The notes under the pieces are model-generated. The model worked only from the letters and a program-made list of their open reading frames with translations. It was not told the origin of the DNA and made no database searches. This document shows, piece by piece, positions 1 to 47,420 of a DNA stretch of 64,000 bases. Made by a program: the position numbers and the translations under genes. This DNA comes from a virus (taxonomy: Duplodnaviria > Caudoviricetes): IMG/VR virus record IMGVR_UViG_3300021963_000022. One strand, 5' to 3'. Position 1 is the first letter of the stretch; each line of letters starts with the position of its first letter.

Positions 1-3000
1 ATGTATAATCAGTACGCAATACTGTAGCTCCATTATAGTTAACACTAGTTTGATTTATGCCAATTGGAGTAGTGCTTAAAGTAAATATTGTTTGTACACC
101 ATTACCAGTAAAGTTATCTACTGTTACATTTGCACCACCAGGTGGTGCTACCCAACTTAAGTTACCTGCACCATCTGTGTTAAGCACATAATTTGCTGTA
201 CCACCAGATATATGTAAATTAGCGATAGCCCCCAATGTAACGTTAGCGGTAGTTGTAAAATCAACTACACCAGATGCATTACTTACTGTTAAACCAGTTA
301 ATGATCCTATACTAGTTATATTTGGCTGTGCATTAGTGTATACTGTACCTGAAACTAATGCGTTACTTACTTGACCAGAGATATTCGCTCCGGCTATTGC
401 ATTGGCAGTTGTAGCAAATGTTGCTAAACCAACAGCACCAGTTACATTTGCACCTTGTATGTTACTTAAATTATTACCACTACCAATAAAGAAATTAGCG
501 GTAGTTGTATTACCTAAATTAGCATTACCACCAGTTATATTACCAGACGCAATAAAGGTATTAGCTGAAATAACATTGACATTAGATACATTACCACCTG
601 CAGTAATAATATTACCGGCAGTTAAATTACCTGTTACATCTAATGTACCTGAAATATTTGCACCAGTACCAGTAACTACCATTACAGTATTACCCACTGC
701 TGTTAAATTGATATTACCATTTGAAGTAGCAATTCTTACATTACTATTACCATTGGCTAATGGGCCACCTAAGTTAGCAGCAGTTAAGTTACCACTAATA
801 TTAGCAGTACCTGTAATGTTTGCACCAGTGCCAGTTACAACTACAATATTTGCATTACTAGAAGCACTTAATGTTACATTACCGTTAACTGCATATAAAC
901 CTACCCCTGTTGCACTAGCAGAGCCAGAAAGATATACCATATTTGCTAATGCAGGTACTAGGGTTGCACTCGGGTTTGCCGCTCCAAACGACCCCATATA
1001 TACATTGCTGGAGTTAAAGGCATCTACTGACGAATAACCTGTTGCAAATCTATTTTGAATTGAGATTGGTGGTGCATCTATATTACTCACAGCATACAAC
1101 GGTGAGTTAGCGCTAACGTTTGCCGGTCTAGTTATAGAACCTAAACCAGTACTTAATCCCACACCAGTAAATGATACAATATTTGCATTACCTGCTACTG
1201 TTACTAAAATATTACCGTTAGCACTTGGGATATTTACATTACTATTGCCATTTGATAATCCTGCAGTAGTGATACCAGTTAAATATATCCCATTACCAGT
1301 AAAGAAATTAGCTGTAACCAAATTACCTAAATTAGCATTACCGGATGTGATATTACCGGTAACACCTAAACTTGTTAATGTACCAACTGACGTAATGTTT
1401 GGTTGAGCATTTGTATATACTGTGCCGGCTACTAATGCGTTAGCTACCTGTCCAGAAACATTACCACCTGCTACTGCATTTGCAGTTGTTGCATATGTAG
1501 CTAAGTTAGCTGTTCCATAGAGATTACCAATGAAGTAATTAGCTGTTGCGGCATTGCCTAAGTTAGCATTACTTACAGTAATATTACCAGTAGCAATAAA
1601 AGTATTTGCCGAGATAACATTAGCATTACCAATATTACCACCTGAGCCAGTAGTATTAATATTGCCGGCGGTGATATTACCAGTAGCAATGAATGTGTTT
1701 GCACTAATAACATTGACGTTACTAATGTTACCACCTGAACCGGCTGTGATTAAATTACCAACTGTTGCATTTCCTGTAACGTTTAATGTGCCTGCAACAT
1801 TAACACCTGTACCAGTTACAATCACAATATTTGCATTACCGGCTACACTAGTTGTTACATTGCCGTTTGCGGCTACTAATACATTGCTATTTCCACTTAC
1901 AATTGTATTGCCTGCGCTTACTGTAATACCAGTTAATAGACTACCATTACCAGTAAAGAAATTAGCTGTAACTAAGTTACCTAAGTTAGCATTGCCAGAA
2001 GTGATATTTCCAGTAACATCTAAACTAGTTAGTGTCCCAACTGAAGTGATATTTGGCTGTGCGTTAGTATAGACCGTACCTGCTACTAATGCGTTAGCTA
2101 CTTGACCAGAAACATTTGCGCCCGCAACTGCATATGCATTTAATGCATTGCCTACATTACCGGATACATTAGCACCAGCTACTGCATTTGCAGTTGTTGC
2201 ATAAGCTACTGCTCCGGTTACGTTACTACCAGTAACACTAAACGCATTACCTGCATAGTTAGCATAATTAGCATTACTTGATGTAGCTGCTGTTATACCT
2301 GTTAGTTGACTACCATTACCTATGAAATAACTGGCACGTACATTGCCCAAGCTGTTAAAAGTTACTACTTCACTTGATACTGAAACATTACTACCAAACG
2401 CAAATTCTGCATTTGAATTATCCCACCCAATAAATGCGTCTACTGGTGCTGATGTGTAGTAATGTAATAATGTGCCCCTATCTTTCCCGTCATTGCTTGA
2501 TAGAGGTGCAGCGTTTACTCCACCACCTAATTCAATGATAGGATCTTCAACTGTTAGTGTTTCTACATTGATATAGCTAGTGTTTCCACTTACAACTAAA
2601 TTACCAGCAACTACTGCATTTCCGGATATACTTAAATCAGTTAATGTACCGACTGATGTAATATTAGGTTGTGCATTAGTGTAGACTGTACCTGCTACTA
2701 ATGCGTTAGCTACTTGTCCAGATACATTCGCTCCTGCAACTGAATTTGCAGTTGTTGCAGTTGTTGCTAAATTAGCTGTACCATATAAGTTACCAATAAA
2801 GAAATTAGCTGTTACTGCATTACCTAAATTAGCATTACCAGAAGTGATATTACCAGTAGCAATAAATGTATTAGCTGAGATAACATTAACATTGCTAACG
2901 TTACCACCTGAACCGGCTGTGATTAAATTACCAACTGTTGCATTTCCTGTAACGTTTAATGTGCCTGCGACATTAACACCTGTACCAGTTATAACTAATA

Positions 3001-4036
3001 TGTTTGCATTACCTGATACGCTAGTTGTTACATTGCCGTTTGCAGAAACAAGTACATTGCTATTTCCACTTACAATAGTATTACCAGCACTAACTGTAAT
3101 ACCAGTTAATAAACTACCATTACCAGTAAAGAAATTAGCTGTAACTAAGTTACCTAAGTTAGCATTTCCAGAAGTGATATTGCCGGTTGCTGATAGGCTA
3201 CTTAATGTACCTACACTTGTAATATTTGGCTGTGATGCTGTAGTTACGGTACTAGCTGTGGTAGCACTTGATACAGTACCTGTAACATTTGCACCTTGAA
3301 TATTACTTAAATTATTACCTGATCCAATAAAGAAATTAGCTGTTACTGCATTACCTAAATTAGCATTACCAGAAGTGATATTACCAGTAGCAATAAATGT
3401 ATTAGCTGAGATAACATTAACATTGCTAACGTTACCACCTGAACCACTAGTAGTTAAATTACCAACAGTTGTATTACCGGTAACATTTAACGTGCCTGTG
3501 ATGTTTGCACCGGTACCAGTTATAACTAATATGTTTGCATTACCTACAGCACTAATATTAACATTTCCATTACTTGATGGAATGTTAACATTACTATTAC
3601 CATTACTGATATTACTTGTTGACCCGCTAGCTACAGTAGACCAAGACAGTATACCAGAACCATCTGTTTGTAAATATTGTCCATTAGAGCCACCGGTGAT
3701 CCGAACATTACCCACTGGACCTAGTGCCACGTTACTTGCACCGGTTAAGTTAATAGTACCTGTACTTGTTAATCCAGTTAGTGTACCAACACTTGTTATA
3801 TTTGGTTGTGAGGCAGTATATACAGTACCTGATATAAGTGCATTACCAACTTGTCCGGATATATTACCAGCTGGTAAATTTGTTAAGTTAGCACCACTAC
3901 CGCTGAAATAGTTTGCTTGTGCAAGATTACCGAGATTAGCATTGAGCGAGGATAGGTTACCCGTAGCCGTCACGTTGTTGAACGTAAAGTTAGCACTTGC
4001 ATTTACAAGATTTGGCTCGATTTTAGTAATTGACAT
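1..4036 (-). CDS. Long Asn/Thr/Gly-rich tail/virion fibre protein, 3'-truncated by the window edge (>1345 aa); absent from the ORF track
   Basis: ATG at 4036 gives MSITKIEPNLVNASANFTFNNV. The same frame reads open where checked (start, ~1000-1080, and GGANVTVDNFTGNGVQTIFTL..LRTDYT at the edge). It shares QPNITSVGTLT, GGSNGQYLQTDGSG and DGKDRGTLLHYY modules with neighbouring fibre genes. Confidence 0.85.
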   Translation of the reverse strand, partial: MSITKIEPNLVNASANFTFNNVTATGNLSSLNANLGNLAQANYFSGSGANLTNLPAGNISGQVGNALISGTVYTASQPNITSVGTLTGLTSTGTINLTGASNVALGPVGNVRITGGSNGQYLQTDGSGILSWSTVASGSTSNISNGNSNVNIPSSNGNVNISAVGNANILVITGTGANITGTLNVTGNTTVGNLTTSGSGGNVSNVNVISANTFIATGNITSGNANLGNAVTANFFIGSGNNLSNIQGANVTGTVSSATTASTVTTASQPNITSVGTLSSLSATGNITSGNANLGNLVTANFFTGNGSLLTGITVSAGNTIVSGNSNVLVSANGNVTTSVSGNANILVITGTGVNVAGTLNVTGNATVGNLITAGSGGNVSNVNVISANTFIATGNITSGNANLGNAVTANFFIGNLYGTANLATTATTANSVAGANVSGQVANALVAGTVYTNAQPNITSVGTLTDLSISGNAVVAGNLVVSGNTSYINVETLTVEDPIIELGGGVNAAPLSSNDGKDRGTLLHYYTSAPVDAFIGWDNSNAEFAFGSNVSVSSEVVTFNSLGNVRASYFIGNGSQLTGITAATSSNANYANYAGNAFSVTGSNVTGAVAYATTANAVAGANVSGNVGNALNAYAVAGANVSGQVANALVAGTVYTNAQPNITSVGTLTSLDVTGNITSGNANLGNLVTANFFTGNGSLLTGITVSAGNTIVSGNSNVLVAANGNVTTSVAGNANIVIVTGTGVNVAGTLNVTGNATVGNLITAGSGGNISNVNVISANTFIATGNITAGNINTTGSGGNIGNANVISANTFIATGNITVSNANLGNAATANYFIGNLYGTANLATYATTANAVAGGNVSGQVANALVAGTVYTNAQPNITSVGTLTSLGVTGNITSGNANLGNLVTANFFTGNGIYLTGITTAGLSNGNSNVNIPSANGNILVTVAGNANIVSFTGVGLSTGLGSITRPANVSANSPLYAVSNIDAPPISIQNRFATGYSSVDAFNSSNVYMGSFGAANPSATLVPALANMVYLSGSASATGVGLYAVNGNVTLSASSNANIVVVTGTGANITGTANISGNLTAANLGGPLANGNSNVRIATSNGNINLTAVGNTVMVVTGTGANISGTLDVTGNLTAGNIITAGGNVSNVNVISANTFIASGNITGGNANLGNTTTANFFIGSGNNLSNIQGANVTGAVGLATFATTANAIAGANISGQVSNALVSGTVYTNAQPNITSIGSLTGLTVSNASGVVDFTTTANVTLGAIANLHISGGTANYVLNTDGAGNLSWVAPPGGANVTVDNFTGNGVQTIFTLSTTPIGINQTSVNYNGATVLRTDYT

Positions 4037-4182: not shown

Positions 4183-5421
4183 TTACGATAATGAATACCC
4201 CGCGGCCGCTAGATAACGTCTAGCAGTACCTACACCAGTAACATTATTACCAACTACACCTGTGTTTGATACTAGATTAGTTACTGATAAATCACCACTG
4301 ACGCCAGCTCCATATCCAAATATAGCTTTATCAGTACCATAACCTGCGGCTGCTAATCCCTGCCTAGCAGTACCAACACCTGTGACGTCTGTGGCCACAA
4401 CGCCTGTATTTGATACTAGGTTGGTAATTGAAAGATTAGTTCCATTACTACCATAACCAAAAATAGCTTTATCTGTACCATAACCTGCGGCCGCAAGTGA
4501 GAATCTACCAGTACCAACACCTGCGGTATCAGTTGCTACTACACCAGTATTTGATACTAGGTTGGTTATTGTGGTATTTGATACACCAGAGCCTCCATAT
4601 CCAAATATCGCTTTATCACCTCCATAACCTGCGGCTGCCAATTCACTTCTAGTAGTACCTACACCTGCCGTATCACTAGCAACTACACCCGTATTTGATA
4701 CTAGATTGGTCATTGATCTTTTGGTAGTTGGTGAGAAAGTAGTTCCATAACCAAAGATAGCTTTATCACCACCATAGCCTGCTGCCGCTAGAAAACATCT
4801 AGCAGTACCTACACCTGCAGTGTCAGTAGCAACTACACCTGTGTTTGATACTAGATTGACCATATTTACCTGTCCTACGTCGGTGTCGCCATATCCAAAT
4901 ATAGCTTTATCACCACCATAACCTGCGGCTGCTAGACCTCGTCTAGCAGTACCTACACCTGCGGTATTTGTAGCGACTACACCCGTATTATTTACTAGAT
5001 TGGTTATTGAATATCGTGTGCCAGACTGACTGCTGCCATAACCAAATATAGCTTTTGTAGTTCCAGTAATTGGTGAATCTGTTGTGATACTATTACTTGA
5101 TGCACTTGGACTACTTGTTCCAATACTATTTGTAGCAGTTACGGTAAATGTATAACTTGTACTTGCCGCTAATCCAGTTACTGTAATAGTACCACTACCT
5201 GCTTGACTTAGTGTACCAGTGATACCAGTGGGACTACTTGTTGCTGTATAAGTTGTAATAGTCGCACCGCCATTACTTGCCGGTGCAGTAAATGCTACAG
5301 TAGCAGTTGTGGTGCCAGTTGCCGTAGCAGAACCAACAGTTGGTGCACCCGGTACTGTTGGTGGTTCAACTATATCTAATCCCCCACTAAATGATATTCC
5401 GCCTGTTATCGTTATTGACAT
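4183..5421 (-). CDS. Adhesin/fibre-tip protein: FN3-like domain plus six kelch-like repeats (putative beta-propeller), 412 aa
   Basis: PGAPTVGSATAT...YTFTVTATNSIG is an FN3-like pattern. It is followed by six repeats of KAIFGYG-x(n)-TNLVSNTGVVAxDTAGVGTAR-xx-LAAAGYG. Confidence 0.75.
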   Translation of the reverse strand: MSITITGGISFSGGLDIVEPPTVPGAPTVGSATATGTTTATVAFTAPASNGGATITTYTATSSPTGITGTLSQAGSGTITVTGLAASTSYTFTVTATNSIGTSSPSASSNSITTDSPITGTTKAIFGYGSSQSGTRYSITNLVNNTGVVATNTAGVGTARRGLAAAGYGGDKAIFGYGDTDVGQVNMVNLVSNTGVVATDTAGVGTARCFLAAAGYGGDKAIFGYGTTFSPTTKRSMTNLVSNTGVVASDTAGVGTTRSELAAAGYGGDKAIFGYGGSGVSNTTITNLVSNTGVVATDTAGVGTGRFSLAAAGYGTDKAIFGYGSNGTNLSITNLVSNTGVVATDVTGVGTARQGLAAAGYGTDKAIFGYGAGVSGDLSVTNLVSNTGVVGNNVTGVGTARRYLAAAGYSLS

Positions 5422-5461
5422 TTACAATCCTTTTTTATTTTAGTGTGTTGTTAATTGTTGT

Positions 5462-7579
5462 TTAACCGTAACTTGCGGCCGCCAAAGATGTTCTAATTGT
5501 ACCAACACCTGCGGTATCACTAGCAACCACACCTGTATTTGATACTAGGTTGGTTATTGATAGAAAATTAATTCCTGATGTGCCAAATCCAAATATAGCT
5601 TTATCATCACCATAACCTGCGGCCGCTAAATTATATCTAACAGTACCAACACCTGCGGTATCACTAGCTACCACACCTGTGTTTGATACTTTGTTGGTTA
5701 TTGATACATCTGTACCACCTCCTCCGGTTTGTCCATATCCAAATATAGCCTTGTCACCACCATACCCAGCGGCCGCTAAATTAGTTCTAGCTGTACCAAC
5801 ACCAGCGGTATTACTAGCTACCACACCTGTGTTTGATACTAGGTTAGTCAGTGCCCAGTAAAAATCTGTATAATTTGGAGCTCCTGAGTTTGAGTAACCA
5901 TAACCAAATATAGCTTTATCACCTCCATAACCTGCGGCTGCTAATCCGTACCTTGCAGTACCAACACCTGCAGTATTAGTAGCAACTACACCTGTATTAC
6001 TTACTAGGTTGGTTGTTGATGTAGAATTATATGTATATGGAGGACCAACATCTTGTCCATATCCAAATATGGCCTTGTCTGTGCCATAAGTTGCGGCCGC
6101 TGGTTTATCTTTTTGAGTACCTACACCTGCGGTATCACTAGCAACCACACCTGTATTTGATACTAGGTTGGTTATTGAGCCTTGTCCAAATCCAAAGATA
6201 GCTTTATCACCGCCATAACCTGCGGCTGCTAAATTAGCCCTAGCAGTGCCTACACCGGTAACATCATTACCAACCACACCTGTGTTACTTACTAGGCTGG
6301 TCATTGACAAAGTACCAATACTAGGATTATATCCATATCCAAATATAGCTCTCTGAGTAATTGGTGACTCTGTTGTAATACTATTACTTGATGCACTTGG
6401 ATTACTTGTACCGGCACTATTAGTTGCAGTAACAGTAAATGTATAACTTGTACTTGCTGTTAATCCAGTTACAGTAATAGTACCACTACCTGCTTGACTT
6501 AATGTACCAGTAATGCCACCGGGACTACTTGTTGCTGTATATGTTGTAATAGTAGCACCACCATTACTTGCTGGTGCAGTAAATGCAACTGTTGCTGTTG
6601 TTTCACCTGTTGCCGTAGCTGTACCAACTGTTGGAGCTCCTGGGGCAATTGCAACTACATTACTAGTGGCATTAGAATTAGCAGATGCATTACCGTAACT
6701 ATTAGTACCAGTAACTACACATCTAATTGGATTGCCAATGTCGGCTTGAACTAATGTATAAGTGCTTGCCGTTGCAGAACCTATATTAGTGCCATTTCGT
6801 TGCCATTGATATGTAAATGTTATTGTAGGTGTGCCAGTCCATGTACCATTAGTAGTTGATAGAGTTGATCCAAAACTTGCTGTACCACTAACTACCGGTG
6901 CCACTGTATTAGCTGGTATAGTAAATGTTGTTATGCTATTGCTTGATGCACTTGCATTACCTGTACCTGCACTGTTTGTTGCCGTAACAGTAAATGTATA
7001 ACTTGTACCAGATGTTAATCCAGTCATATTAATAGTACCACTACCTGCTTGACTTAGTGTACCGGTTATTCCGCCTGGACTACTTGTTGCTGTATATGTC
7101 GTAATAGTAGCACCGCCGTCTTCTGCAGGTGCGGTATATGCTACTGTGGCAGTTGTTAATCCGGTTGCTGTGGCAGTACCAATAGTTGGTGCGCCGGGTA
7201 CAGATACTGCATATAATATATTGATACTTGCACTGGTGCCATCTAGATTAGTTAAAACAACACTATATGTTCCTACACTTTTAGGTGGACTATTAAAAGT
7301 CGCACTGGTAGAACTTACTCTAGTAACTGCTATTGATGTACCATCTACAGTTAAAGTAACACCAGTTTCAAAAAAAGAACCTGTTAACGTAATTGTTTGT
7401 CCACCTGCAGGTATTGCACTATTAAGACCACCTGAATACGTAATCTCATTAATATTAATTGATACGATAGAATTACTTGTAATAACTGTATTACCTACTA
7501 CAATGGAGTCACTTAAATATATAGTAGGTAGTTGATTACTAGAACCACCTGTTTGAAAGTCTTGATAATTAGTTGCCAT
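5462..7579 (-). CDS. Adhesin/fibre-tip protein: IPT/TIG-like, FN3, Ig-like and FN3 domains plus six kelch-like repeats, 705 aa
   Basis: Contains an ITLTGSFF...VVLTNLDG IPT-like segment, two FN3-like copies, a FTYQWQRNG...IRCVVTGTN Ig-like segment, and the same C-terminal repeat as 4183..5421. Confidence 0.75.
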   Translation of the reverse strand: MATNYQDFQTGGSSNQLPTIYLSDSIVVGNTVITSNSIVSININEITYSGGLNSAIPAGGQTITLTGSFFETGVTLTVDGTSIAVTRVSSTSATFNSPPKSVGTYSVVLTNLDGTSASINILYAVSVPGAPTIGTATATGLTTATVAYTAPAEDGGATITTYTATSSPGGITGTLSQAGSGTINMTGLTSGTSYTFTVTATNSAGTGNASASSNSITTFTIPANTVAPVVSGTASFGSTLSTTNGTWTGTPTITFTYQWQRNGTNIGSATASTYTLVQADIGNPIRCVVTGTNSYGNASANSNATSNVVAIAPGAPTVGTATATGETTATVAFTAPASNGGATITTYTATSSPGGITGTLSQAGSGTITVTGLTASTSYTFTVTATNSAGTSNPSASSNSITTESPITQRAIFGYGYNPSIGTLSMTSLVSNTGVVGNDVTGVGTARANLAAAGYGGDKAIFGFGQGSITNLVSNTGVVASDTAGVGTQKDKPAAATYGTDKAIFGYGQDVGPPYTYNSTSTTNLVSNTGVVATNTAGVGTARYGLAAAGYGGDKAIFGYGYSNSGAPNYTDFYWALTNLVSNTGVVASNTAGVGTARTNLAAAGYGGDKAIFGYGQTGGGGTDVSITNKVSNTGVVASDTAGVGTVRYNLAAAGYGDDKAIFGFGTSGINFLSITNLVSNTGVVASDTAGVGTIRTSLAAASYG

Positions 7580-7588
7580 ATATCTCCA

Positions 7589-8779
7589 TTAAATTTGAGT
7601 TAGTAACCAGCCCTGTGAGTTGTTATAATAAACCATTGTTAAACCAGCACGTGGTGTAGTAATTACCATATCATTTGCACTACCCATAATATTTCCACCA
7701 TTTCTACTAACAGTGATAGCATGTGTGTTCGCATTACCTGTACCATCAATAATACCAACAGTGTCACCTAAGTTACCACTTGCCGGTAAAGTCATTGTTA
7801 AGTTTGCACTACTTGTATTAACAATGTAAACGTTACCAGCTACCATAGTAGTATTAGCACTTACGCCTACATATGCTGAACCGCCTATTGTATTAATTGT
7901 AATTGGCGTGGCACTACCACCACTAGCGATTGTTTGCACTTCAATTACTGTTCCACTTGGTGGAGCTGAACTAAATGTTATCGTGGTGCCGGTTACAGTA
8001 TATGATGATTGATATTGACTAACACCGCCAATTGTAACACTTGTATATGCTTTGCTAGTTGGTGTTACACTTAATGTAAATGCTGTAGTAGTTCCGTCAC
8101 CATTAAAAGAATCTACTGTTACAGTAGTAGTTGGCAATGGATTCCAACTTAATGATCCGCTGCCGTCTGTTCTAAGATAACTATTTGCATTGCCGCCGGT
8201 AATTGTAATATTACCAACTGCACCCAAATTAGTTGTACCGCTTACTGATAGACTTGTTAATGTGCCGAGGCTAGTAATGTTTGGTTGTGCAGAAGCAGTT
8301 ACTGTATTTGCTGTGCCTGCAATTACTCCAGTTAGTAAACTACCATTACCTGTAAAATAATTTGCTGTTGCTAAATTACCTAAATTAGCGTTAGCGACGG
8401 TTATGTTTCCAGTTACATTTAACGTGCCAACAATATTGGCACCTACATTGGTAATGGTCATTACATTAGCGTTACCAACTGCGCTAAATGTAATATTGCC
8501 GTTTGCGGTAGCAATACTTACATTACTATTGCCATTACTGATAGAGGAGCTGCCGCCTGATTGAGTAGTCCAACTTAAATTGCCCGTACCATCTGTTTGT
8601 AATATATACCCATTGGCACCGCCGGTAATTTTTACATTACTAGCGTTACCTAAATTTGCTGATGCTGTGACATTTATATTACCTGAAAACGTACTTGCCG
8701 AAACCGTACTATTACCTGCGTGTAATAAAATATTACCGGTAACAATACCGTTCTTTACGTTAAAGTATTTAAATGCCAC
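7589..8779 (-). CDS. Tail fibre-like protein, 396 aa
   Basis: N-terminal FNVKNG motif and a VDSFNGDGTTTAFTL domain. The C-terminal TLPASGNLGDTVGIIDGTG...RNGGNIMG...MVYYNNSQGW resembles the repeat of T4 gp34-type proximal fibres. Confidence 0.7.
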   Translation of the reverse strand: MAFKYFNVKNGIVTGNILLHAGNSTVSASTFSGNINVTASANLGNASNVKITGGANGYILQTDGTGNLSWTTQSGGSSSISNGNSNVSIATANGNITFSAVGNANVMTITNVGANIVGTLNVTGNITVANANLGNLATANYFTGNGSLLTGVIAGTANTVTASAQPNITSLGTLTSLSVSGTTNLGAVGNITITGGNANSYLRTDGSGSLSWNPLPTTTVTVDSFNGDGTTTAFTLSVTPTSKAYTSVTIGGVSQYQSSYTVTGTTITFSSAPPSGTVIEVQTIASGGSATPITINTIGGSAYVGVSANTTMVAGNVYIVNTSSANLTMTLPASGNLGDTVGIIDGTGNANTHAITVSRNGGNIMGSANDMVITTPRAGLTMVYYNNSQGWLLTQI

Positions 8780-8856: not shown

Positions 8857-11800
8857 TTATACGTTGATATAGCTTGCGACTATATTAACTTTTGCATTTG
8901 CACTATTTGATGTTGCATACAAGGTTACATTACTTGATAGCCCATTGATGTTAGCTGAGATATCGATAATGTCAGCAGATACATTGCTACATACGCTACC
9001 GTAAATTGTAATGTATGCAGTTGTACCATCATGTACCATTAACGCTTCTACTGATTGATATCCGTCATCGCCGCTAGCACTTACTACGTACTTAGCAGTT
9101 CTGAATGTGCCGGGCGCAAACTGATCAATAACTGTATTTGATGTTACAGAAACGTTACTACGATTAGTTGTTAACCCATTGTTTAAGCCAACGTAGTTGG
9201 CTGTCACGTTACCCGAAACAGTCAAGCCAGTTAGTGTTCCAACTGAAGTAATAGCTGGTTGTGCCGCTGTATATACTGTACCTGCAACTAATGCATTAGC
9301 TACTTGACCGGTAATATTACCTGCTGTAATATTGCTTAATTGACCACCATCACCACTAAAGAAGTTAGCAGTAGCTAAGTTACCTAAATTAGCGTTAGCG
9401 ACAGTTAAGTTGCTAGTAGCAGATAGTGTACCTGTTATATTTGCACCAGTAGCAGTGAATATTGCAATATTTGCAACTCCACCCACTCCAACTGTTACAT
9501 TGCCATTTGCAGTAGAAATATCAACATTAGATGTACCATTTGCTAGTGTATCGGTATCAACAGTAGCGAAAGATAATCCACCTGCACCATCTGTTCTTAA
9601 GTATTGACCAGTAGTGCCACCTGTAATATGTACATTACCAACTGCACCCAATGCAACATTACTTGTACCAGTTAAGTCAATTACACCTGTACTTGTTAAT
9701 CCAGTTAATGTACCAACACTTGTAATATTACCTTGTATGGCTTGAGTTACATGTCCGGCTAAGTTAGCATTAGCAACATTACCTGTTACGTTTGCACCAG
9801 TTAAGCTAGTTAAGCTAGCACCGTTGCCTGCAATATTTGTAGCAGTTAATGTATTTGATGATTTATCAAATGTGAATGCTGCAGTAGCGCCAAATGATCC
9901 ACCATCATTAAATTGAACTTGTGTATTAGTACCAGCAGTACCTGTACTACCTGCATTAACCCAAGATAAGTTTCCTGATCCATTAGTTCCCAAGATATAA
10001 CCATTTGAACCACCAGTAATAATAACGTTACCGACAGGACCAAGATTACTTACACCGTTAACTGTTAAACCAGACAATGTACCTAAGCTAGTAATATTAG
10101 CTTGTGTAGCGGTTGTTAAGTTACCTGCAATAGTAGATGCAGATATGCCACCCGTCGTACTTAAATTACCTACACTAACATTACCACTGAATGTACCAGT
10201 TACTGCACCAACATCGTTTGTTGCAGAAAGATTATTTGCACTAATATTAGCTGTTGCAGATAAACTTGTACCAGTAGCTGCACCAATATTTGGTGTTACG
10301 AATGCCGCAGAGTCTGCAACTTTCAATGTATCTGCACTAATTTGAATTGTAGTTGTATCAACGTTAACGCTGAACGTAGTACCAGTTAATGTTAAGCCGT
10401 CTCCCGCAACATATTGTCCTGCACCAGAGAACTGACTGAATATAATATTAGTTGTACCAACTGTTACTGGACTGTTAGTTGTACATACCCAACCAGTATC
10501 GGCATATGATGTACCTTCTTCAACGAACGTGAATCCAGCTGGAATTTCACCGCTTGGGCTGCCTTGATCAAAGTCAGTTGCACGGGTTAGAACGAATGCT
10601 GTAGATCCATTACCTAATGTAGTTACAACGTAAATACCGTTTTGTGTTTGATTAGCTTGATTCTTAATTAATACGCGGTCGCCTTGAGCTAGAGTTGCGC
10701 CATCAATTGTTGGTAGTGCTCCGGACGCATCAGCAGTAAGAGTTGCACCTACACCAGAAGTACCGTTATTGTAAGTTACTGCAGGAAGAGCAGCTGTAGT
10801 AGCAGCCTTTACAGAAGCCTTTACATCAAGACCTTGTGCTACGCTATCTACATAACCTTTATTTGCCGCATCAGTGTCACCACTTGGAGTTGCAACTTGT
10901 GTAATACGCTTGTTACTTACATCTACTGTACCAGTACCAGTTGGAGTCAATACAACATTTGCATTACCTGTACCTGAATTTATAGTTAGATCAGCAGTGC
11001 CAACTGCAGTTAATGTGTTAGATATTAAGCTACCTGCTTGAAGCGCAGAAGTGATATTTGCATTACCAGCGGCAATATTAGCTGTTGTAGTAATATTACC
11101 AGGGGCAGTTAATACGCCATCTTGACCAAATGTCCATGTATTAGAAGTAGTGCCACTTGCACCTGTTTGTACAGTAACATTGCCACCACGTAATTGTTTT
11201 AAATCTGTTTGAGTTGTACCTAAAACTAATTGTGAACCATCACTTGTTCCACTAAATATTTGTCCAGTACCATCTGGATCTAATCTTACTTGACCACTTG
11301 GTAAGAACTCTGTAGTGTAACCGTTAGCGGTTAAACCTACGATACCAGTTGTTGCACTTAAATCAACTTTAACGGTGTAAGTACCAGCTTGAACTATACT
11401 AGGAGCATATACATTACCAGTAGTAATAAAATTACCACTAGTTGTATTACCAGTAACAAATAAATTTGTTAAGTTACCAACACTTGTAATACTAGGTTGA
11501 GCACTATCGGATACAGTAAGGGCTACGTTAGCTGTTCCGTGTAAGTTACCAATGAAATAATTTGCAGTAGCGGCATTACCTAAATTAGCATTACCTGATG
11601 TAAGATTACCAGAAATACCTAGTGTTCCTGTAACATTTGCACCAGAACTAGAAATTACTAATACGTTAGCTGATCCTGCGCTACTAAAGGATATATTACC
11701 ATTATTGAGTACTTCAATGTTACTAGTACCATTAGACAATGATGCTGTACTAATCGTTACAAATGATAGTCCACCAGTACCGTTTGTAACTAGTACTTGC

Positions 11801-12153
11801 CCGTTGGTTCCACCTGTAATATGAACATTACCCACTGCGCCCAATGCAACATTACTTGCACCAGTTAAGTCAACTGCACCTGTACTTGTTAATCCAGTTA
11901 GTGTTCCAACTGAAGTAATAGCTGGTTGTGCCGCTGTATATACTGTACCTGCAACTAATGCATTAGCTACTTGACCAGTAACGTTACCACCAGTAATATT
12001 ACTTAATGATGATCCATTACCAGTAAAGAAATTAGCATTTACGGTGTTTACAATACTAAGATTGCCTACACCAGTAAGATTGCTTGATGCCGCATCAAGA
12101 ACTATATTACCTGTTGTAATACCTTGTTTTACATTAAAATATCTAGTAGTCAT
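8857..12153 (-). CDS. Tail/virion fibre protein, 1098 aa
   Basis: QPxITSVGTLT repeats, a DAANKGYVD neck-like motif followed by a GDRVLIKNQ...NGIYVV...LTRATDFD domain, and a C-terminal FRTAKYVV...YQSVEALMVHDG...YGS domain shared with paralogues. Confidence 0.75.
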   Translation of the reverse strand: MTTRYFNVKQGITTGNIVLDAASSNLTGVGNLSIVNTVNANFFTGNGSSLSNITGGNVTGQVANALVAGTVYTAAQPAITSVGTLTGLTSTGAVDLTGASNVALGAVGNVHITGGTNGQVLVTNGTGGLSFVTISTASLSNGTSNIEVLNNGNISFSSAGSANVLVISSSGANVTGTLGISGNLTSGNANLGNAATANYFIGNLHGTANVALTVSDSAQPSITSVGNLTNLFVTGNTTSGNFITTGNVYAPSIVQAGTYTVKVDLSATTGIVGLTANGYTTEFLPSGQVRLDPDGTGQIFSGTSDGSQLVLGTTQTDLKQLRGGNVTVQTGASGTTSNTWTFGQDGVLTAPGNITTTANIAAGNANITSALQAGSLISNTLTAVGTADLTINSGTGNANVVLTPTGTGTVDVSNKRITQVATPSGDTDAANKGYVDSVAQGLDVKASVKAATTAALPAVTYNNGTSGVGATLTADASGALPTIDGATLAQGDRVLIKNQANQTQNGIYVVTTLGNGSTAFVLTRATDFDQGSPSGEIPAGFTFVEEGTSYADTGWVCTTNSPVTVGTTNIIFSQFSGAGQYVAGDGLTLTGTTFSVNVDTTTIQISADTLKVADSAAFVTPNIGAATGTSLSATANISANNLSATNDVGAVTGTFSGNVSVGNLSTTGGISASTIAGNLTTATQANITSLGTLSGLTVNGVSNLGPVGNVIITGGSNGYILGTNGSGNLSWVNAGSTGTAGTNTQVQFNDGGSFGATAAFTFDKSSNTLTATNIAGNGASLTSLTGANVTGNVANANLAGHVTQAIQGNITSVGTLTGLTSTGVIDLTGTSNVALGAVGNVHITGGTTGQYLRTDGAGGLSFATVDTDTLANGTSNVDISTANGNVTVGVGGVANIAIFTATGANITGTLSATSNLTVANANLGNLATANFFSGDGGQLSNITAGNITGQVANALVAGTVYTAAQPAITSVGTLTGLTVSGNVTANYVGLNNGLTTNRSNVSVTSNTVIDQFAPGTFRTAKYVVSASGDDGYQSVEALMVHDGTTAYITIYGSVCSNVSADIIDISANINGLSSNVTLYATSNSANAKVNIVASYINV

Positions 12154-12163
12154 TTTTTATCCT

Positions 12164-15100
12164 TTAGTCTGCTACGTATGTGCCCAATAAATTAACAGTA
12201 GTATTAGCTATAGTCGAAGTTGCTAGTAATTGAACATTTCCAGAATTTATAGCTGTACCCAGTGATATAATATCTGTCCCGATTGTAGACAGACTACCAT
12301 ATATGGTTACATAACTATTTACTCCGTTATGAATTAATAGAACTTCAACAGCTTGATAACCATCATCACTGTTTACCCTCATAGTGTATTTAGCTGACCT
12401 GTATTTATTTACGGGAAAGCTATCCACTATTGTGTCATTTGTAATAGAAATTGGGGTTCTATTACTAGATAAATCACTAACTTTTAAGTTTGTTATAGTA
12501 GCAAGACTAGCTACAACTAAATTACCGTTTGTACTGATGTTATTTGCTACTAAATTACCCCTAACAGTTGTATTTCCAGTCGTACTACCAACAGTTACAT
12601 TAGCTGATAGACCTAAATTTACATTGGTTAAAGTTGTTGAAAATATATTAGCACTGGTTCCGTTAACACTAAGTTCACCTGTACTTAATATCAAGTTTCC
12701 TGCAGTAGAAGTTAGATTTCCTAATGCAGTTATAACATTTGCAGACAATGTTTCTGTAAGATAGTCATATGTAAAGTTTGCACTACCAGCAAACGTACCG
12801 TTATTGTTATATTGAACCTGCGTATTTGTGCCACCAACACCCTGTGATCCAGCATCTACCCAAGCTAGATTGCCTGTACCATCAGTTCCTAGAACGTAAT
12901 TAGCAGTACCACCTGTAATACGAACATTACCCACGTCACCTAAGTTACTTATACCAGATATAGCGAGAGATGTACCACTTAAGTGGTTTGCGTAAATGTT
13001 ACCATTAGCATCACGTAGAACTATAGTATTTCCGGATACTTCTACATTTGCACTAATAAATCCGCTTGAAATATCTATCCAAGCATATGTTGCCCCGTCG
13101 TACACATATTTGTAAATTCTGTCATTTAACTCGTCATACCACTCGTCACCTGCAATTGGATTGATAGGTATTGCACTGGCGCTAGTGTATGTTGGAACAT
13201 CTTTTCCGTCACGTGTAATAGAATCAGCAACTTCTAATGTTCCTGTAATAGTAGCAGTATTTGTAGTACTATTAAACTGGAATGAGTTACTAGCATTAAT
13301 CATACCAGAATCATTGAAGATAATACTAGTATTGTAGCCCGGGCTCGTTAAATTACCATCAAAATTACCAAAGAAATTGTCTGCAGTAACGTTTGCTAGT
13401 GTGATAGTAACGTTACCAACAGTGATATTTGTAGCAGTAACGTCTCCTAAATCTGATAGACCAGTAACATCTAGACTAGTTAGTACACCTAAACTATTGA
13501 TATTTGGCTGAGAAGCATCAACAACTATATTTGCATATGTTGATGTAGTAGAGATATTTGCAATGTTTGCATATTCTGCAGAGTTTGCTGAAGCAACTAT
13601 ACCTGATACATTTGAACCAGTCAAATTACTTAAGTAACCGCCGTCTCCTAAGAAATATACGGCTGCTACGTTACCACCAAACTCACCTATGTTAGCAGTA
13701 ATATTTCCAGTTATATCTAGTGATACTAATGTGCCAACTGAAGTAATATTAGGTTGACTAGATGCAGTAACGTTTACTGCGACAGTAGCTGTATTTGCAG
13801 TTATTGCATTAAGTGCTGTTTGTGCTGTTACCGCGTTGCCTGCATAATTAGAATAGTTAGCAGATGCTACCCAACCAGTAATTACTGATCCTTGAATATT
13901 TGATATAAATGATCCATCACCTACCAAATAGTTAGCAACAACTACATTACCGGCATCAATATTACCAGCAACTATGTTTCCAGAAACTAACAATTCAGTT
14001 AAAACGCCAACACTAGTAATATTAGATTGTTCAGCATTGGTAACAGTAGTTGCTACTAATGCTGTTTCTGCTATTACTGCATTACCTGCATAGTTAGCGT
14101 AGTTGGCAAATTCACCAGTAGGGACATTAGATAGTAGGCCGCCATCACCAATGAAGAAATTAGCTCTTGCAACGTTACCAAAGTCACCATTACCTGAAGT
14201 AATATTACCAATAACAACTAAGCTTGTCAAGTTACCTACACTAGTAATGTTAGGTTGTGCGCTATCGTTGACTGTATTGGCAGCATTAGTAATTCCTGCA
14301 TAGGTAGCATAATTTGCATTAGCAACAGTACCTATAATATTAGTAGATTGAACATTACTAATATTTCCACCATCACCATTAAAGAAGTTTGCACTAGCAC
14401 TGTTACCCAATACAGCATCAAATGATGTTAGCATCCCAGCTACTGACAATGATGTTAGTAAACCAACACTTGTAATATTTGGTTGTGCGCTAGCTATTAC
14501 TGTATTGGCAACATTGGCTGTCTCTGCTGTAAAGGTTACACCTGCAAATGATGCATAATTTGCATTTGCTACTTCAGTAATATTACTACCATTAAGATCG
14601 GTCAATAAACTACCGTCGCCTGCAAAGTAATTTGCAACAACTAAGTTACCTAAGTTGGCATTACCTCCTGAAATATTTCCGGTTACTGTCAAATTAGACA
14701 ATGAACCAATAGTTGTAATGTTTGGTTGACTTGATGAGGTCAAAGTACCTTGCAAGAATGATGCTATTACAAGATTACCTAAACTTGCATTGGCTGCAGT
14801 AATATTACCCGTAACATCTAGTGCAGATAGTGTACCTACAGCAGTGATGTTAGGTTGTAAACCTTCTGTTACTGTACCTGCTGTTGTAGCAGATCCGGTT
14901 AAATTACCAGTAATGTTAGATGCAATGATATTATTAGCTAAGACAAAATTAGCATTGATATTTCCACTTACGGTAAGTTCGCTATTAGCCGATTGAAATG
15001 TGAAACCAGGTGACGTACCAATGTTACCGTCATTGTTGTATAAGATTTCAGTATTATCACCCGGAATAACAATGTTACCAGTGATGTTACCGTTAAAGTT

Positions 15101-25931: not shown

Positions 25932-27128
25932 TCACTGAAAAGTTAAATTGCTGACCGCAATTTCCCCTAGATAATCAGCCGCATTACCAAATGATGATGC
26001 TGTGTTTGTTAACTCAACATAACCATAACGAGTCATGAAACTAACTACTGGTTCGAATGTACTAGGATCTAGAACAACACCAGAACTCATCAATGGGATG
26101 TATGGGCAATAGAATGCCGCTGCATCTGTCTCAGATGAACCTTTGTAACCAACTAATACTGGTTGTGTGTCTTGTGCATAGCTGTTAACAAAAACACGCA
26201 TAGCACCGTTCAATGTACCAACGAACTTAGTGTTAGTTGGAGCTTCGAATGTACCTTCTGTAGTACGAGCAAATGCAGAAGTAGTTGCAGATTGCAATAC
26301 TGTTAATGCAGCTGGAGATACAACAGCCCAGTTACCTGCGCCACGACGTGTACGTTGGGCGATCAAGTTAGCAACACGATTGATAAGAACGGCTAGGGCA
26401 GCGTGTTCGTCACCAACAAATGTAGCTGTACCAGATACAGTAGCTTGGTTAAATGTAAATTCAGTTGTAGCCAATGAAGATAGGCTTAAAAGAATTTCTT
26501 GGTCAATCTCAGCAGTAATCTCTTGTGCAAGAGCTGCCATGATTTCTGCTTCAACGTCAATACCATGTTGAGACTGAGCATCTTGTGCTGCCTCAAATGT
26601 CCAACGTGCTTGCAACTTACGTGATTTAGCTTCAACAGCTTGACGCAAGATTTGTACGCTGATTTGCTTACCGCCGTTACCTTCTAAGGCAGCAGTATCA
26701 TTAGCTGTATAAGAGCTAGTTGATGATGTACCGTAAGGTGTGCGTGAATAAGCTTCAGCAATCTTGAATGGGCTTAATGCCTCTTCACCTGCTGAAACAC
26801 TTGTACCTGCTGCACTGTTGTCTGTTAAAGACTGAGCATAGCGAACACGTAGAGTGTGAATTTGACCTACTGGACCCGTCATTGGCTGAACGCCTACCAA
26901 CTCGTTAGCGATAACTGTTGGCATTACACGACGGATAACTGGTAGAATCACACGGTTTAATGTAGCGATATTACCTGCTGTAGTCGTACCAGCTGATGAC
27001 TCAGATAGTAGTGACTTCTTAGTGTTTTCTAAAATAACACTCATTGTTGAGCGGCGAGTACCTTTAAGACCTTCGAGTAGGGCTTCTTTGGTCTCGTCCC
27101 AACGGCTTTCTAATAGAACTTGTGACAT
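25932..27128 (-). CDS. gp23: Major capsid protein (T4 gp23-like)
   Basis: ANELVGVQPMTGPVGQIHTLR, VEAKSRKLQARWTFEAAQD, AFYCPYIPL and FEPVVSFMTRYG are gp23 signatures. GGAGA RBS; follows the protease and scaffold genes. Confidence 0.97.
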   Translation of the reverse strand: MSQVLLESRWDETKEALLEGLKGTRRSTMSVILENTKKSLLSESSAGTTTAGNIATLNRVILPVIRRVMPTVIANELVGVQPMTGPVGQIHTLRVRYAQSLTDNSAAGTSVSAGEEALSPFKIAEAYSRTPYGTSSTSSYTANDTAALEGNGGKQISVQILRQAVEAKSRKLQARWTFEAAQDAQSQHGIDVEAEIMAALAQEITAEIDQEILLSLSSLATTEFTFNQATVSGTATFVGDEHAALAVLINRVANLIAQRTRRGAGNWAVVSPAALTVLQSATTSAFARTTEGTFEAPTNTKFVGTLNGAMRVFVNSYAQDTQPVLVGYKGSSETDAAAFYCPYIPLMSSGVVLDPSTFEPVVSFMTRYGYVELTNTASSFGNAADYLGEIAVSNLTFQ

Positions 27129-44501: not shown

Positions 44502-47420
44502 ATGACTGATAATATATTTAAACTTCGAGGGACTACACAAAGCTACACAGACGAACGCGGTGGTGCCGTATTATTATCAAGACCGGTTATAGGTATTGTT
44601 AAAAATAATATTGATCCAACACATACCGGTAAAATTGAAGTATACATTGCTAGGTTAAACGGGTATAACCAAGAGAATCCAGTTGGATGGGTTCCCGTAA
44701 GATACTTGAGTCCCTTTGGTGGTAGTACACAAAACACATCCAGCCCTGATGATGAAGGTAAATATAAAACAAATTCACATTCTTATGGGTTTTGGGCCAC
44801 ACCGCCCGACATCAACACGCAAGTACTATGTATATTTGCAAATGGTGATATCAACTTTGGCTATTACATAGGTGCTATACCAGGATCAGGCCTAACACAT
44901 ATGTTACCGGCAATTGGTTCAAGCGAAAAGATTGTAGCAAATAGCAAAGAATCAGAATCATATGGTGGTGCAACACGTTTGCCTGTTACTGAAATTAATG
45001 ATGTAAATTCTAAAAAAGATAACAATGAAATGTTTGTAGACCAGTCTAGGACTATTCATAGTTATCAAGCAGCCATGCTAAACATACAAGGATTGATTAG
45101 AGATCCAGAACGAGGAACTATTAATAGCACTGCGGCAAGAGAAACACCTAGTGGCGTAATTGGACTATCATCACCCGGAAGACCTTATTATAAAGGTGGC
45201 TATACTGATGAGAATATTGAAGATGCTGTTAAGAATGAGGGTACACCTGCAGAGAATTTTAAAATTGTAGGACGGAAAGGTGGTCATAGTCTCGTACTAG
45301 ATGACGGAGACTTAACCGGTAAAGAACAACTAATTAGATTACGCTCTGGTACCGGACATCAAATACTAATGCACGACAAAGCTGAGACTATCTTTTTAAT
45401 TCATGCTAATGGTAAGAGTTGGATTGAGATGGGCAAAGAAGGTACTATTGATATCTACAATACAAATAGCACTAATATAAGAACACACGGTGATATTAAT
45501 CTTCACGCTGAACGAGATATTAATATGTTTGCTAAAAGAAATTTCAACTTAAAAGCAGAACAGATTAACTTAGAAAGTACAAAAAATACATTACTAAGAG
45601 CGGGTAAAGACTATAATCAATATGTTGTAGGTAAGTATACAGTAAAAGTTGACGGTGCAATGAGTTTGAAAAGCAAAGGTGAAGCTAGTGTTGCAAGTGA
45701 TGCTATCGCATATGTCAATGGTAAAAAAATTAATTTGAATACAGGATCAGCGGCACTAGTTCCTGACAAAGTTGAAGCAATCGCTGTTAAAAAACATGAC
45801 GACACGTTGTACGATAAGAAAAAAGGATTTACCCCTGCACCAAATAAATTAGAAAGTATCAACTCACGTGTACCCGCACATAGTCCATGGACTGGCGCAA
45901 ACAAGGGTGTAGATGTGAAAGTAGATTTTAGTTCTGATAAAAACTTACCAGAAGACCCAAGCCCGTCAACAGCAGCCGCAAATAATGCAGCTCCTGATAG
46001 TCCACAGAGTCCTACTAACCCAGCTCTTGCAAGCACAGTACCTGCAGGTTCTGTTGGCGGAGAAGATCCAAATACTACTAGTGCATTGGTCAGTCAAACA
46101 GCAGTAAATGCCGCTAATACACCTGATCCGGGTGCCAATGCTATGGGAAGTTTTAATCAGACACCTGATAATTTAGAAAAAGCAGGTATACTTAAACCAG
46201 GTGCAAGTGTAGTAGCAAACAAATTAATAGATCAAGGCAAGTCTTTTTCAGAAGCTATGCCAGCAACATTATGGACAGGAAACGGGGCAACCGACTTCTC
46301 GTCTTATTTAAACAACACTTCATTGCAGTCAAGTATTCAATCATCGTTGTTAGGTGACGCATCAGCATCATTGATTGGTGCAGGAATAATTAGTGGTGCA
46401 GAAAGTTTAACACAAACCGCTGGCTTGATTATGGCTGCTGCCGCATTAGGTGTGACAGCAGTATCAGGATTTGTTAACACTAGTTCGGGTAAAGGGACAG
46501 CAACTCCTGCTGATACTAATAGTACTATTGGACCAATTAACGATTTAGTTGCCAGTGGTAATTACGCTGCCAGAATGGCAGATCAAACTACTAGTGGTAT
46601 TAATCCCACGTTATCAACTAATGGTTCAGCAAAAGGTGCAGTAGCTGGTACATTTGGTACAGTCACTGATGCATATAAACCTTTTAAAGCAGGTGTTCCT
46701 ATTAATTTAGGTAAACAAAACACATTACCGAAATCACCTACTGCCGATCAAGTAACGTTAGCAGGTATACCGGGTGGACTCTCTGCTACTAGTAACTTAG
46801 TAGACATTTCTGTATTACTAGCAAGTATAACTAAATCTAAAGAATTGCAAGCTTTGGCCGACAACGCGGCAGGATTACCCACTACAATAAATACTGATCT
46901 CATTCGTATACGATTAGCAGCCGGACAGACTAATTTAGAAAAATTAGCATTGAATGGATTAACGCATGAACAAATCGTTAGATTGTATAGCGCAGTAAGT
47001 GCATTAACAAATGGATCTTCTATTACCATTCAATTACCAACAGTTGGAGTTAATACAACTAGTGCTAGTGATTTGGCTCTTAAGATACAGACTGAACAGT
47101 TGATTGATCCTGACGCAAAACCTTCTGCTCAACAATTAGTAGATTCTAATAACACAAATAATATAGTAACTATTAACACAACAAATGAACCAGCATTGTC
47201 AAGAGCTATCATTGAAGCTACGATATTGACTCTTTCAACTGAAGAAACTAAGTATCAAACAAGAAAAACTAGACTTAAAGACGAGTATGATTACGCTAAA
47301 ACTACGTACGGCCCTGATGCAACAGAAACAGTAACTGCATACGATAATTACAAAACAATTATCAAACAGATAACTGCGGTTCAGACTCAGGTCTTGGATT
47401 TGATGAAAAAACTAAACTAA
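44502..47420 (+). CDS. gp5: Baseplate spike protein (T4 gp5/VgrG-like) with long C-terminal extension
   Basis: OB-fold-like IGIVKNNIDP...GKIEVYI...SYGFWATPPD, and the beta-helix segment GHSLVLDDGD...IRLRSGTGHQILMHD...SWIEM ending RVPAHSPW. Confidence 0.8.
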   Translation: MTDNIFKLRGTTQSYTDERGGAVLLSRPVIGIVKNNIDPTHTGKIEVYIARLNGYNQENPVGWVPVRYLSPFGGSTQNTSSPDDEGKYKTNSHSYGFWATPPDINTQVLCIFANGDINFGYYIGAIPGSGLTHMLPAIGSSEKIVANSKESESYGGATRLPVTEINDVNSKKDNNEMFVDQSRTIHSYQAAMLNIQGLIRDPERGTINSTAARETPSGVIGLSSPGRPYYKGGYTDENIEDAVKNEGTPAENFKIVGRKGGHSLVLDDGDLTGKEQLIRLRSGTGHQILMHDKAETIFLIHANGKSWIEMGKEGTIDIYNTNSTNIRTHGDINLHAERDINMFAKRNFNLKAEQINLESTKNTLLRAGKDYNQYVVGKYTVKVDGAMSLKSKGEASVASDAIAYVNGKKINLNTGSAALVPDKVEAIAVKKHDDTLYDKKKGFTPAPNKLESINSRVPAHSPWTGANKGVDVKVDFSSDKNLPEDPSPSTAAANNAAPDSPQSPTNPALASTVPAGSVGGEDPNTTSALVSQTAVNAANTPDPGANAMGSFNQTPDNLEKAGILKPGASVVANKLIDQGKSFSEAMPATLWTGNGATDFSSYLNNTSLQSSIQSSLLGDASASLIGAGIISGAESLTQTAGLIMAAAALGVTAVSGFVNTSSGKGTATPADTNSTIGPINDLVASGNYAARMADQTTSGINPTLSTNGSAKGAVAGTFGTVTDAYKPFKAGVPINLGKQNTLPKSPTADQVTLAGIPGGLSATSNLVDISVLLASITKSKELQALADNAAGLPTTINTDLIRIRLAAGQTNLEKLALNGLTHEQIVRLYSAVSALTNGSSITIQLPTVGVNTTSASDLALKIQTEQLIDPDAKPSAQQLVDSNNTNNIVTINTTNEPALSRAIIEATILTLSTEETKYQTRKTRLKDEYDYAKTTYGPDATETVTAYDNYKTIIKQITAVQTQVLDLMKKLN

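Follow-up and report, generated by a model that had tools for sequence, protein, structure and literature searches.

The window analysed here, a 64,000-nucleotide stretch of DNA from a tailed virus (Duplodnaviria, Caudoviricetes; IMG/VR record IMGVR_UViG_3300021963_000022), carries two adjacent genes, A and B, whose proteins end in six repeats of a nearly constant frame with variable loops. According to structure prediction, both C-terminal domains are six-bladed propellers of the kelch type at the level of the fold. We think it likely that A and B are virion surface proteins in which the variable face of the distal propeller binds a host surface structure, and that this face changes by ordinary mutation and by the exchange of modules. 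For the locus itself the result is mainly a correction. The original prediction, made from the sequence without database searches, had seen in the repeats an antibody-like binding scaffold whose surface could be rewritten by recombination between homogenised frames, without a reverse transcriptase. The propeller and the scaffold are supported by structure prediction and by comparative data, and the active recombination diversifier at this locus is not; the repeat pattern would reflect strong structural constraint on an old, diverged propeller and not an active device of diversification. The genes and their propellers are the following.

4183..5421, minus strand: gene A, 412 amino acids, with a short N-terminal peptide as likely anchor, one FN3 domain and a predicted six-bladed propeller (open reading frame (ORF), Pfam and repeat parsing)
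4186..5055, minus strand: propeller of A, residues 123-412, six blades of 47-50 residues each
5462..7579, minus strand: gene B, 705 amino acids, with an N-terminal region, TIG, FN3, Ig-like and FN3 domains and a predicted six-bladed propeller (ORF and Pfam)
5465..6352, minus strand: propeller of B, residues 410-705, six blades of 43-55 residues each

The two ORFs are separated by 40 nt. Position 6357, at which the original prediction had let the feature end, is the start of the propeller of B and not the end of gene B (7579). Parsing with regular expressions finds exactly six repeats at the end of each protein, as had been described, in the order KAIFG[YF]G, a loop of 4-16 residues, TNLVSNTGVVAxDTxGVGTAR, a variable dipeptide (XX) directly after the conserved arginine, and LAAAGYG(G/T)D. 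Across both proteins the repeats measure 43-55 residues, 37 of which form the frame. All 12 loops differ from one another, the longest being those of blades 3 and 4 of B (14 and 16 residues), and the 11 different XX dipeptides that had been listed are all found, to which DK in the deviant blade 2 of B has to be added. The frame had been called nearly invariant, and this holds at the protein level, where identity over the 12 blades is 82%, and not at the DNA level, where it is about 79% (range 72-87%) and the blades are not homogenised. The periods found by Tandem Repeats Finder are 141-150 nt, with 73-82% match. A and B are the sole copies of the propeller, in DNA or protein, within the window.

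No Pfam or PHROG model covers the repeats of A or B, and the Pfam models Kelch_1 to Kelch_6 have no match at E<=1 in P0001 or P0002, nor in seven homologues. The AlphaFold2 model of the A propeller, computed from an alignment of 51 sequences, reaches a predicted local distance difference test score (pLDDT) of 95.8 and a predicted template modelling score (pTM) of 0.92 and is all-beta, with four strands per repeat as assigned by DSSP; the FN3 domain and propeller of B are modelled with a pLDDT of 92.2. Foldseek searches of the PDB and the AlphaFold DB return the kelch domains of KLHL12, KLHL17 and KEAP1 at template modelling (TM) scores of 0.8-0.85, and in an exhaustive structure alignment against 48,161 PDB representatives the same three domains obtain Z scores of 33.6 (over 282 of 295 residues), 33.2 and 32.7. 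The six-bladed propeller postulated from the repeats is in this way supported by prediction, with kelch domains as the top match. In terms of a kelch blade the phage repeat reads as the arginine, strand A (LAAAGY), GGDK, strand B (AIFGYG), the long loop, strand C (TNLVS), a turn (NTG) and strand D (VVA). The propeller begins at strand B (KAIFGYG) and both proteins stop just past strand A (LAAAGYS or LAAASYG), which closes the predicted ring by the C-terminal strand, as in KEAP1.

With KEAP1, KLHL12 and KLHL17 the phage propellers share the six four-stranded blades of about 47-50 residues, the closure by a C-terminal strand and the motif order R..hhhhG-GGxk-hhhGG-loop-strand. They differ from them in that sequence identity is 12-17%, that the kelch tryptophan is replaced by valine, that the blades are far more alike mutually than those of BTB-Kelch proteins, and that the propeller sits on a fibre-type stalk, whereas the BTB-Kelch adaptors carry a BTB-BACK module. 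Predicted six-bladed kelch proteins also exist in large myophages, namely jumbo phages of the BcepSaruman, Pectobacterium CBB and PhiPA3/Noxifer types (BFVD), and some of these are annotated as virion structural proteins; they are 10-23% identical to A and B, with TM scores of 0.57-0.81, and are without the KAIFGYG/TNLVSNTGVV frame. A kinship with the Photorhabdus PLL/PHL lectins was considered and rejected. These lectins have a period of about 48 residues and a weakly similar pattern (G-V-x-x-S ... R-L-x-x-F-A-R-G-T-D-x-A-L-W), but they possess seven blades instead of six, the E value of 0.001 obtained from a single sequence rises to 0.02-0.05 when the family profile is used, and they are not among the top structural matches.

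Among the 51 homologues, columns of high entropy are confined to the loop that follows FGYG and to XX, and this holds for every blade. The order of the strands identifies the variable loop as the one between B and C and puts XX at the close of the D-A loop. Where four strands form a meander, the B-C and D-A connections share a face, opposite to that of the A-B and C-D turns, and in KEAP1 the ligand pocket is made of D-A and B-C loops, with blade I closed by the C-terminal strand (PMC12314335). By this analogy the variable sites would all lie on one face, corresponding to the ligand-binding face of KEAP1-type kelch domains. Because the propeller chain begins with strand B and finishes with strand A, the FN3 stalk would join the opposite, invariant face, and the variable face should be directed away from the stalk. 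A variable surface on a single face had been proposed before; it is now refined to two variable sites per blade, placed on one face by topology and distal to the stalk. Ser, Gly, Thr, Asn and Tyr are abundant at the variable positions, with tyrosine making up 18.8% of XX, and this composition fits a binding surface. The loops fall into conserved length classes and keep their terminal residues, [VL]S[IM].

As an alternative to binding, the propeller could be an enzyme, such as a kelch-type sugar mutarotase, an oxidase or a sialidase-like depolymerase, that acts on a host surface polysaccharide. Phage fibres often carry depolymerases, and the exhaustive alignment includes YjhT/NanM (Z 23.6) as well as sialidases, which together with fucose lectins and other non-kelch propellers reach Z 17-18. 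The best matches, by a wide margin, are nevertheless the protein-binding kelch domains. All conserved residues of the phage propellers belong to the repeated structural frame, the face that holds the active site in such enzymes is here the most variable part, and no blade has a position-specific conserved polar residue. We consider an enzymatic function very improbable.

Ahead of the propellers, both proteins carry the parts of a stalk, as listed here.

5353..5421, minus strand: N-terminal peptide of A (MSITITGGISFSGGLDIVEPP...), about 23 residues
5080..5352, minus strand: FN3 domain of A, residues 24-114 (Pfam fn3 at residues 26-110, E 7e-9)
6368..7417, minus strand: stalk of B, with TIG at 7232-7417, FN3 at 6926-7204, an Ig-like domain at 6644-6925 and FN3 at 6368-6643

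The original prediction had spoken of FN3/Ig stalks, and these are recovered with Pfam and PHROG models. In B, Pfam matches TIG at residues 55-116 and fn3 twice, the Ig-like domain corresponds to phrog_26223/12736 at residues 219-312, and the AlphaFold2 model of residues 300-705 places a beta-sandwich ahead of the propeller. The N-terminal peptide of A is likely a virion-attachment peptide, because the same motif of about 20 residues directly precedes the propeller in short homologues (P0093, P0068, P0104, P0060 and P0100). The FN3-propeller cassette of A corresponds to the C-terminal cassette of B. The FN3 domain of A and the last FN3 domain of B are 93% identical in amino acids with a synonymous divergence (dS) of 0.5, and dS between the two propellers is 0.78; with such high synonymous divergence, A and B are old paralogues and not recent exchange partners.

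In the explanation that we favour, each protein would consist of an attachment part (in A the short peptide, in B a longer N-terminal region), a stalk built from FN3, TIG and Ig-like domains, and the distal propeller. The invariant frame would build the four strands of each blade, and the B-C loops and XX together would make up a binding face for a host glycan or protein, with A and B offering two different specificities. Specificity would shift by faster substitution and small insertions or deletions in the loops and by occasional short conversion tracts between blades; further change would come from duplication of the FN3-propeller cassette and from horizontal exchange of the whole head at the domain boundary. 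We infer the location on the virion, the binding function, the kind of ligand and the identity of the variable with the binding face: the proteins are read as adhesins because their genes sit in a cluster of fibre-like genes, near matches to tail-fibre and tail-spike families, and a host-binding role is suggested because the face is variable and the head is exchanged as a module.

Whether recombination is rewriting the loops in this phage can be judged from the DNA of the blades. The idea of the original prediction, in its strict form, is that homogenised frames recombine, within or between A and B, and so keep the loop face under active rewriting, with host-range variants in the population as the product and without a reverse transcriptase. 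Homogenised frames are not what is found. The nucleotide identity of the frames to blades of other phages (genes of contigs L003, L004 and L005) is 74-80%, which is like the mean within the window (78.5%), and there is no within-gene excess of blade DNA identity; together with the divergence of A from B, this contradicts the assumed homogenisation. Identical residues share their codon in 65% of blade pairs, compared with 43% expected from codon usage. Position-specific codon choices, such as ACC at Thr8 and GCC at Ala33, recur across the family in other phages, and because the codon pattern is family-wide, we ascribe the excess of shared codons to shared ancestry or constraint and not to local conversion.

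The comparison with an orthologue of the B propeller, the gene L004_1520, speaks in the same direction. The two are 91% identical in amino acids and 94.6% in nucleotides, and all six loops are found in the same blade, with few substitutions and one deletion of three residues. Orthologous blades are 91-100% identical in DNA (mean 95.8%), compared with 79% for non-orthologous blades, and repeats are thus not more alike within a gene than to orthologues or to other genes. Amino-acid differences are concentrated in the loops and XX (13 of 76 positions, compared with 10 of 220 in the frame, p = 0.002), and the variation is not adenine-specific. In a second-sample assembly (L002) both genes are 100% identical to those of the window although the neighbouring fibre gene differs. 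Pieces of the A propeller from four runs of four studies show no differences, with the proviso that these are short contigs in which rare variants could escape. One public run contains an L004-like allele in blades 4-5 of B. Neither repeat reshuffling nor repeat-number polymorphism between close strains was found in the second assembly, the orthologue and the short contigs. The identity of loops among related phages and populations, which the original prediction itself had held to speak against a diversifier, is seen within the sampled populations and not between related phages. No reverse transcriptase was seen among the large ORFs scanned against Pfam or PHROGs, which are part of the window's ORFs and gave structural, SbcCD or no matches, and no other dedicated machinery is evident. 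From these comparisons there appears to be no sign of an active loop-rewriting system in this phage.

Many contig joints seemed to skip whole numbers of blades (for example from 4357 to 4504 and from 4357 to 4798) and were examined as blade-number variants. They were rejected because the short contigs were placed at a likeness threshold of 88%, because their sides are only 21-56 nt, and because one of them is deeper than the phage's own pieces and has 21 mismatches, hence stems from another family member. The alignment with the second assembly also provided a separate observation on the neighbouring gene (7589..8779, minus strand): over 7.2 kb, 31 of the 32 differing columns fall in 8135-8399, with 22 substitutions and a 9-nt insertion at 8302, and this looks like a recombinant patch in a tail-fibre-like gene.

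Exchange between blades does leave traces, the clearest of which in the window is the following.

5545..5600, minus strand: candidate gene-conversion tract, 56 nt of B blade 6 identical to blade 2 (second copy at about 6163-6218)

Its coordinates derive from offsets 808 and 190 of the B propeller DNA. In the orthologue, 6 of 12 nt of blade 2 differ at this place, whereas blades 2 and 6 of the window are the same. A run of this length was reached in none of 5000 permutations, part of the signal coming from the deviant 3' half of blade 2. The tract indicates, on the strength of these alignments, a short blade-to-blade conversion event. Blade 4 of the orthologue carries a Lys and an Asp that are otherwise typical of blade 5 and is a possible further conversion tract. 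Exchange on a larger scale is suggested by the extent of the likeness to L004, which runs only from 6356 of the window, exactly at the first blade, to 5450, 12 nt past the stop codon. The gene L004:1520-2522 has an unrelated N-terminus of 36 residues (MAETNITGPLWGYEQRS...) and unrelated flanks. The propeller of B thus appears as a discrete module that has been transferred as a whole head between phages.

Relatives from other contigs come closer to what had been postulated for the window. The IMG/VR contigs L039 and L078 carry three or four tandem propeller genes with 18-24 blades, the frames of which are 91-98% identical in nucleotides, and variation is limited to about four loop positions and XX. 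Loops such as WNGSYLSM or SNSSGRVSI are found again in other genes and at other blade positions, and the proportion of synonymous differences (pS) in the frame is 0.13, compared with a proportion of nonsynonymous differences (pN) of 0.5-0.63 at loop columns 1 and 6 and XX. This pattern has the signature of concerted evolution combined with diversifying selection, as far as sequence comparison can tell. A three-blade duplication is found in L014 and repeated blades in L034. Exchange at the level of blades is therefore a real mode of evolution in the family, by ordinary homologous recombination and with no dedicated machinery evident. These relatives, the whole-blade duplications and the 56-nt tract are what can be said for an active diversifier; in the window the blades are as diverged from one another as from those of unrelated phages, the loops are inherited by position and both genes are unchanged in a second sample, and we judge it improbable that such a system operates here.

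A comparable case is known from the WD40 repeats of the fungal HET-d, HET-e and HNWD proteins, which evolve in concert and under diversifying selection (Paoletti et al. 2007, PMC1805685; Chevanne et al. 2010, PMC2873952). Like those of L039 and L078, and like the mechanism first proposed for the window, these repeats are highly similar, vary at a few hypervariable positions on one face and are reshuffled. They differ in being WD40 and not kelch repeats, in belonging to cytoplasmic NLR-type receptors and not to virion proteins, and in being eukaryotic; furthermore, the fungal blades are homogenised, unlike those of the window. It is tempting, if speculative, to regard the KAIFGYG family as a phage counterpart of HET-d/e. 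It would then be an antibody-like adhesin repertoire independent of reverse transcriptase, in which gene conversion passes sequence between tandem genes and between blades, 4-6 sites per blade are kept variable by diversifying selection and new binding faces appear rapidly, with the two genes of the window as old, 'frozen' members that undergo occasional conversion. We hold this broader view to be doubtful, albeit less so than an active diversifier at the locus.

Several points weigh against a specific host-binding function of the propellers. Phage proteins that carry FN3 or Ig-like domains can be non-essential and are often dispensable decorations. The assignment of the variable sites to one face is based on strand topology and on the kelch analogy and not on model coordinates. 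The ratio of nonsynonymous to synonymous divergence (dN/dS) between B and its orthologue is 0.46 in the frame and 1.6 in the loops and XX, and the latter value comes from 12.5 versus 2.5 changes, is not significantly above 1 and is compatible with relaxed constraint; a comparison of orthologues, as had been suggested as a check, hence did not establish positive selection on the loops of the window. One could accordingly imagine the propellers as non-specific decoration or spacer domains without a specific ligand, whose loops vary because they are unconstrained, and the identity of the A propeller pieces in four runs would fit such a role, too. Unconstrained loops would not be expected to keep their length classes and terminal residues or to be so strongly biased to Tyr, Ser, Gly and Asn. 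Moreover, the hypervariable sites of the relatives change 4-5 times faster than synonymous frame sites, which neutral drift would not do, and the head has repeatedly been recruited to very different anchors and multiplied in tandem. A mere decoration or spacer seems to us rather unlikely, and we prefer the host-binding function.

The propeller is not peculiar to this phage. A word-indexed search finds at least 2,286 homologous proteins, and an exhaustive HMMER search yields 692 clusters at 50% identity, of which 278 have E values below 1e-30; the propeller is very common in freshwater phage metagenomes. Every named homologue is called 'hypothetical', and the nearest UniProt entries are from uncultured Caudovirales. 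In a tblastn search of GenBank phages with B, run with the low-complexity filter on, the propeller had no match in a cultured phage at E<=1e-5, and only the Ig-like stalk domain was matched, in Stenotrophomonas phages. The family consensus is identical to the frame of the window, and the constant frame is therefore a property of the family and not of local homogenisation. We regard the propellers as a new sequence family without a name, with a known fold and a known class of role, that of the modular distal domains of phage appendages.

Almost all homologues carry the propeller at their C-terminus and with six blades, the minimal blade being 47 residues long. What precedes the propeller is very diverse: Laminin_G_3, FN3, a number of modules without a name, or no more than 20-60 residues. 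Among these variants is the peptide ITGG(I/V)(S/T)F(S/T)GG, which is common to A and homologues. Propeller genes in viral contigs often form tandem arrays of two to five, and a few homologues have two or three propellers per chain. Multi-propeller polypeptides of this kind are encoded by L043-L046, L049, L052 (an ORF of about 918-920 amino acids at 5973) and L077 (833 amino acids) and represented by P0003 and P0004; 12 frame motifs make two propellers in them, and 17 counted motifs probably make three. P0223 has 4359 amino acids with the propeller near its C-terminus. A peculiarity of codon choice concerns strand A, whose Ala-Ala-Ala is mostly encoded as GCG GCC GCA in the propellers of the window (4186-5055 and 5465-6352) and then contains the NotI octamer GCGGCCGC. 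The codons GCG and GCC are rare in the source phage (6% and 10%), and GCC for the middle alanine is used in 11 of the 12 blades here and in 38% of blades family-wide, compared with 6-12% at other alanine columns.

The propeller is among the commoner unannotated modules of freshwater phage metagenomes and is apparently an interchangeable binding head on many kinds of appendages. Naming the domain and locating its variable face would improve the annotation of tail-fibre regions in uncultured jumbo phages, and the family would supply candidates for studies of host recognition. As a regular six-fold scaffold whose loop sites tolerate 4-16 residues, it is also a possible starting point for engineered binders.

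The gene content identifies the window as the structural region of an uncultured freshwater phage, a T4-like jumbo myophage, with the following genes as landmarks.

25932..27128: major head protein
28275..28913: prohead protease
30143..31933: portal
44502..47420: gp5-like hub

A gene for an SbcCD-like nuclease is encoded as well. The nearest capsid proteins, about 66% identical, are those of Vibrio phage 2.275.O and of PA5oct-type jumbo phages of Pseudomonas. The same DNA is present in ENA assemblies of up to 114 kb and in 20 public runs from 15 studies, mostly of freshwater or lake samples. A and B lie within a co-directional run of very large fibre-like genes, in which two neighbouring genes, 7589..8779 and 8857..12153, have matches to families of tail fibres or tail spikes and to the N-terminal domain of the T7 tail fibre. 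Scans for sigma-70 promoters, terminators and T4 late promoters around A and B gave nothing above chance. On the minus strand, 2-4036 and 8857-18793 contain fibre-like ORFs of more than 1345, 1098 and 2209 amino acids, built from repeated NANLGN..ANFF.GNG..L.NI units with internal DNA repeats that are 83-92% identical, and these fibre-like ORFs give rise to long spurious antisense ORFs on the plus strand (402..3911). On the plus strand, an ORF of more than 4230 amino acids occupies 51309-63998 and runs off the end of the window.

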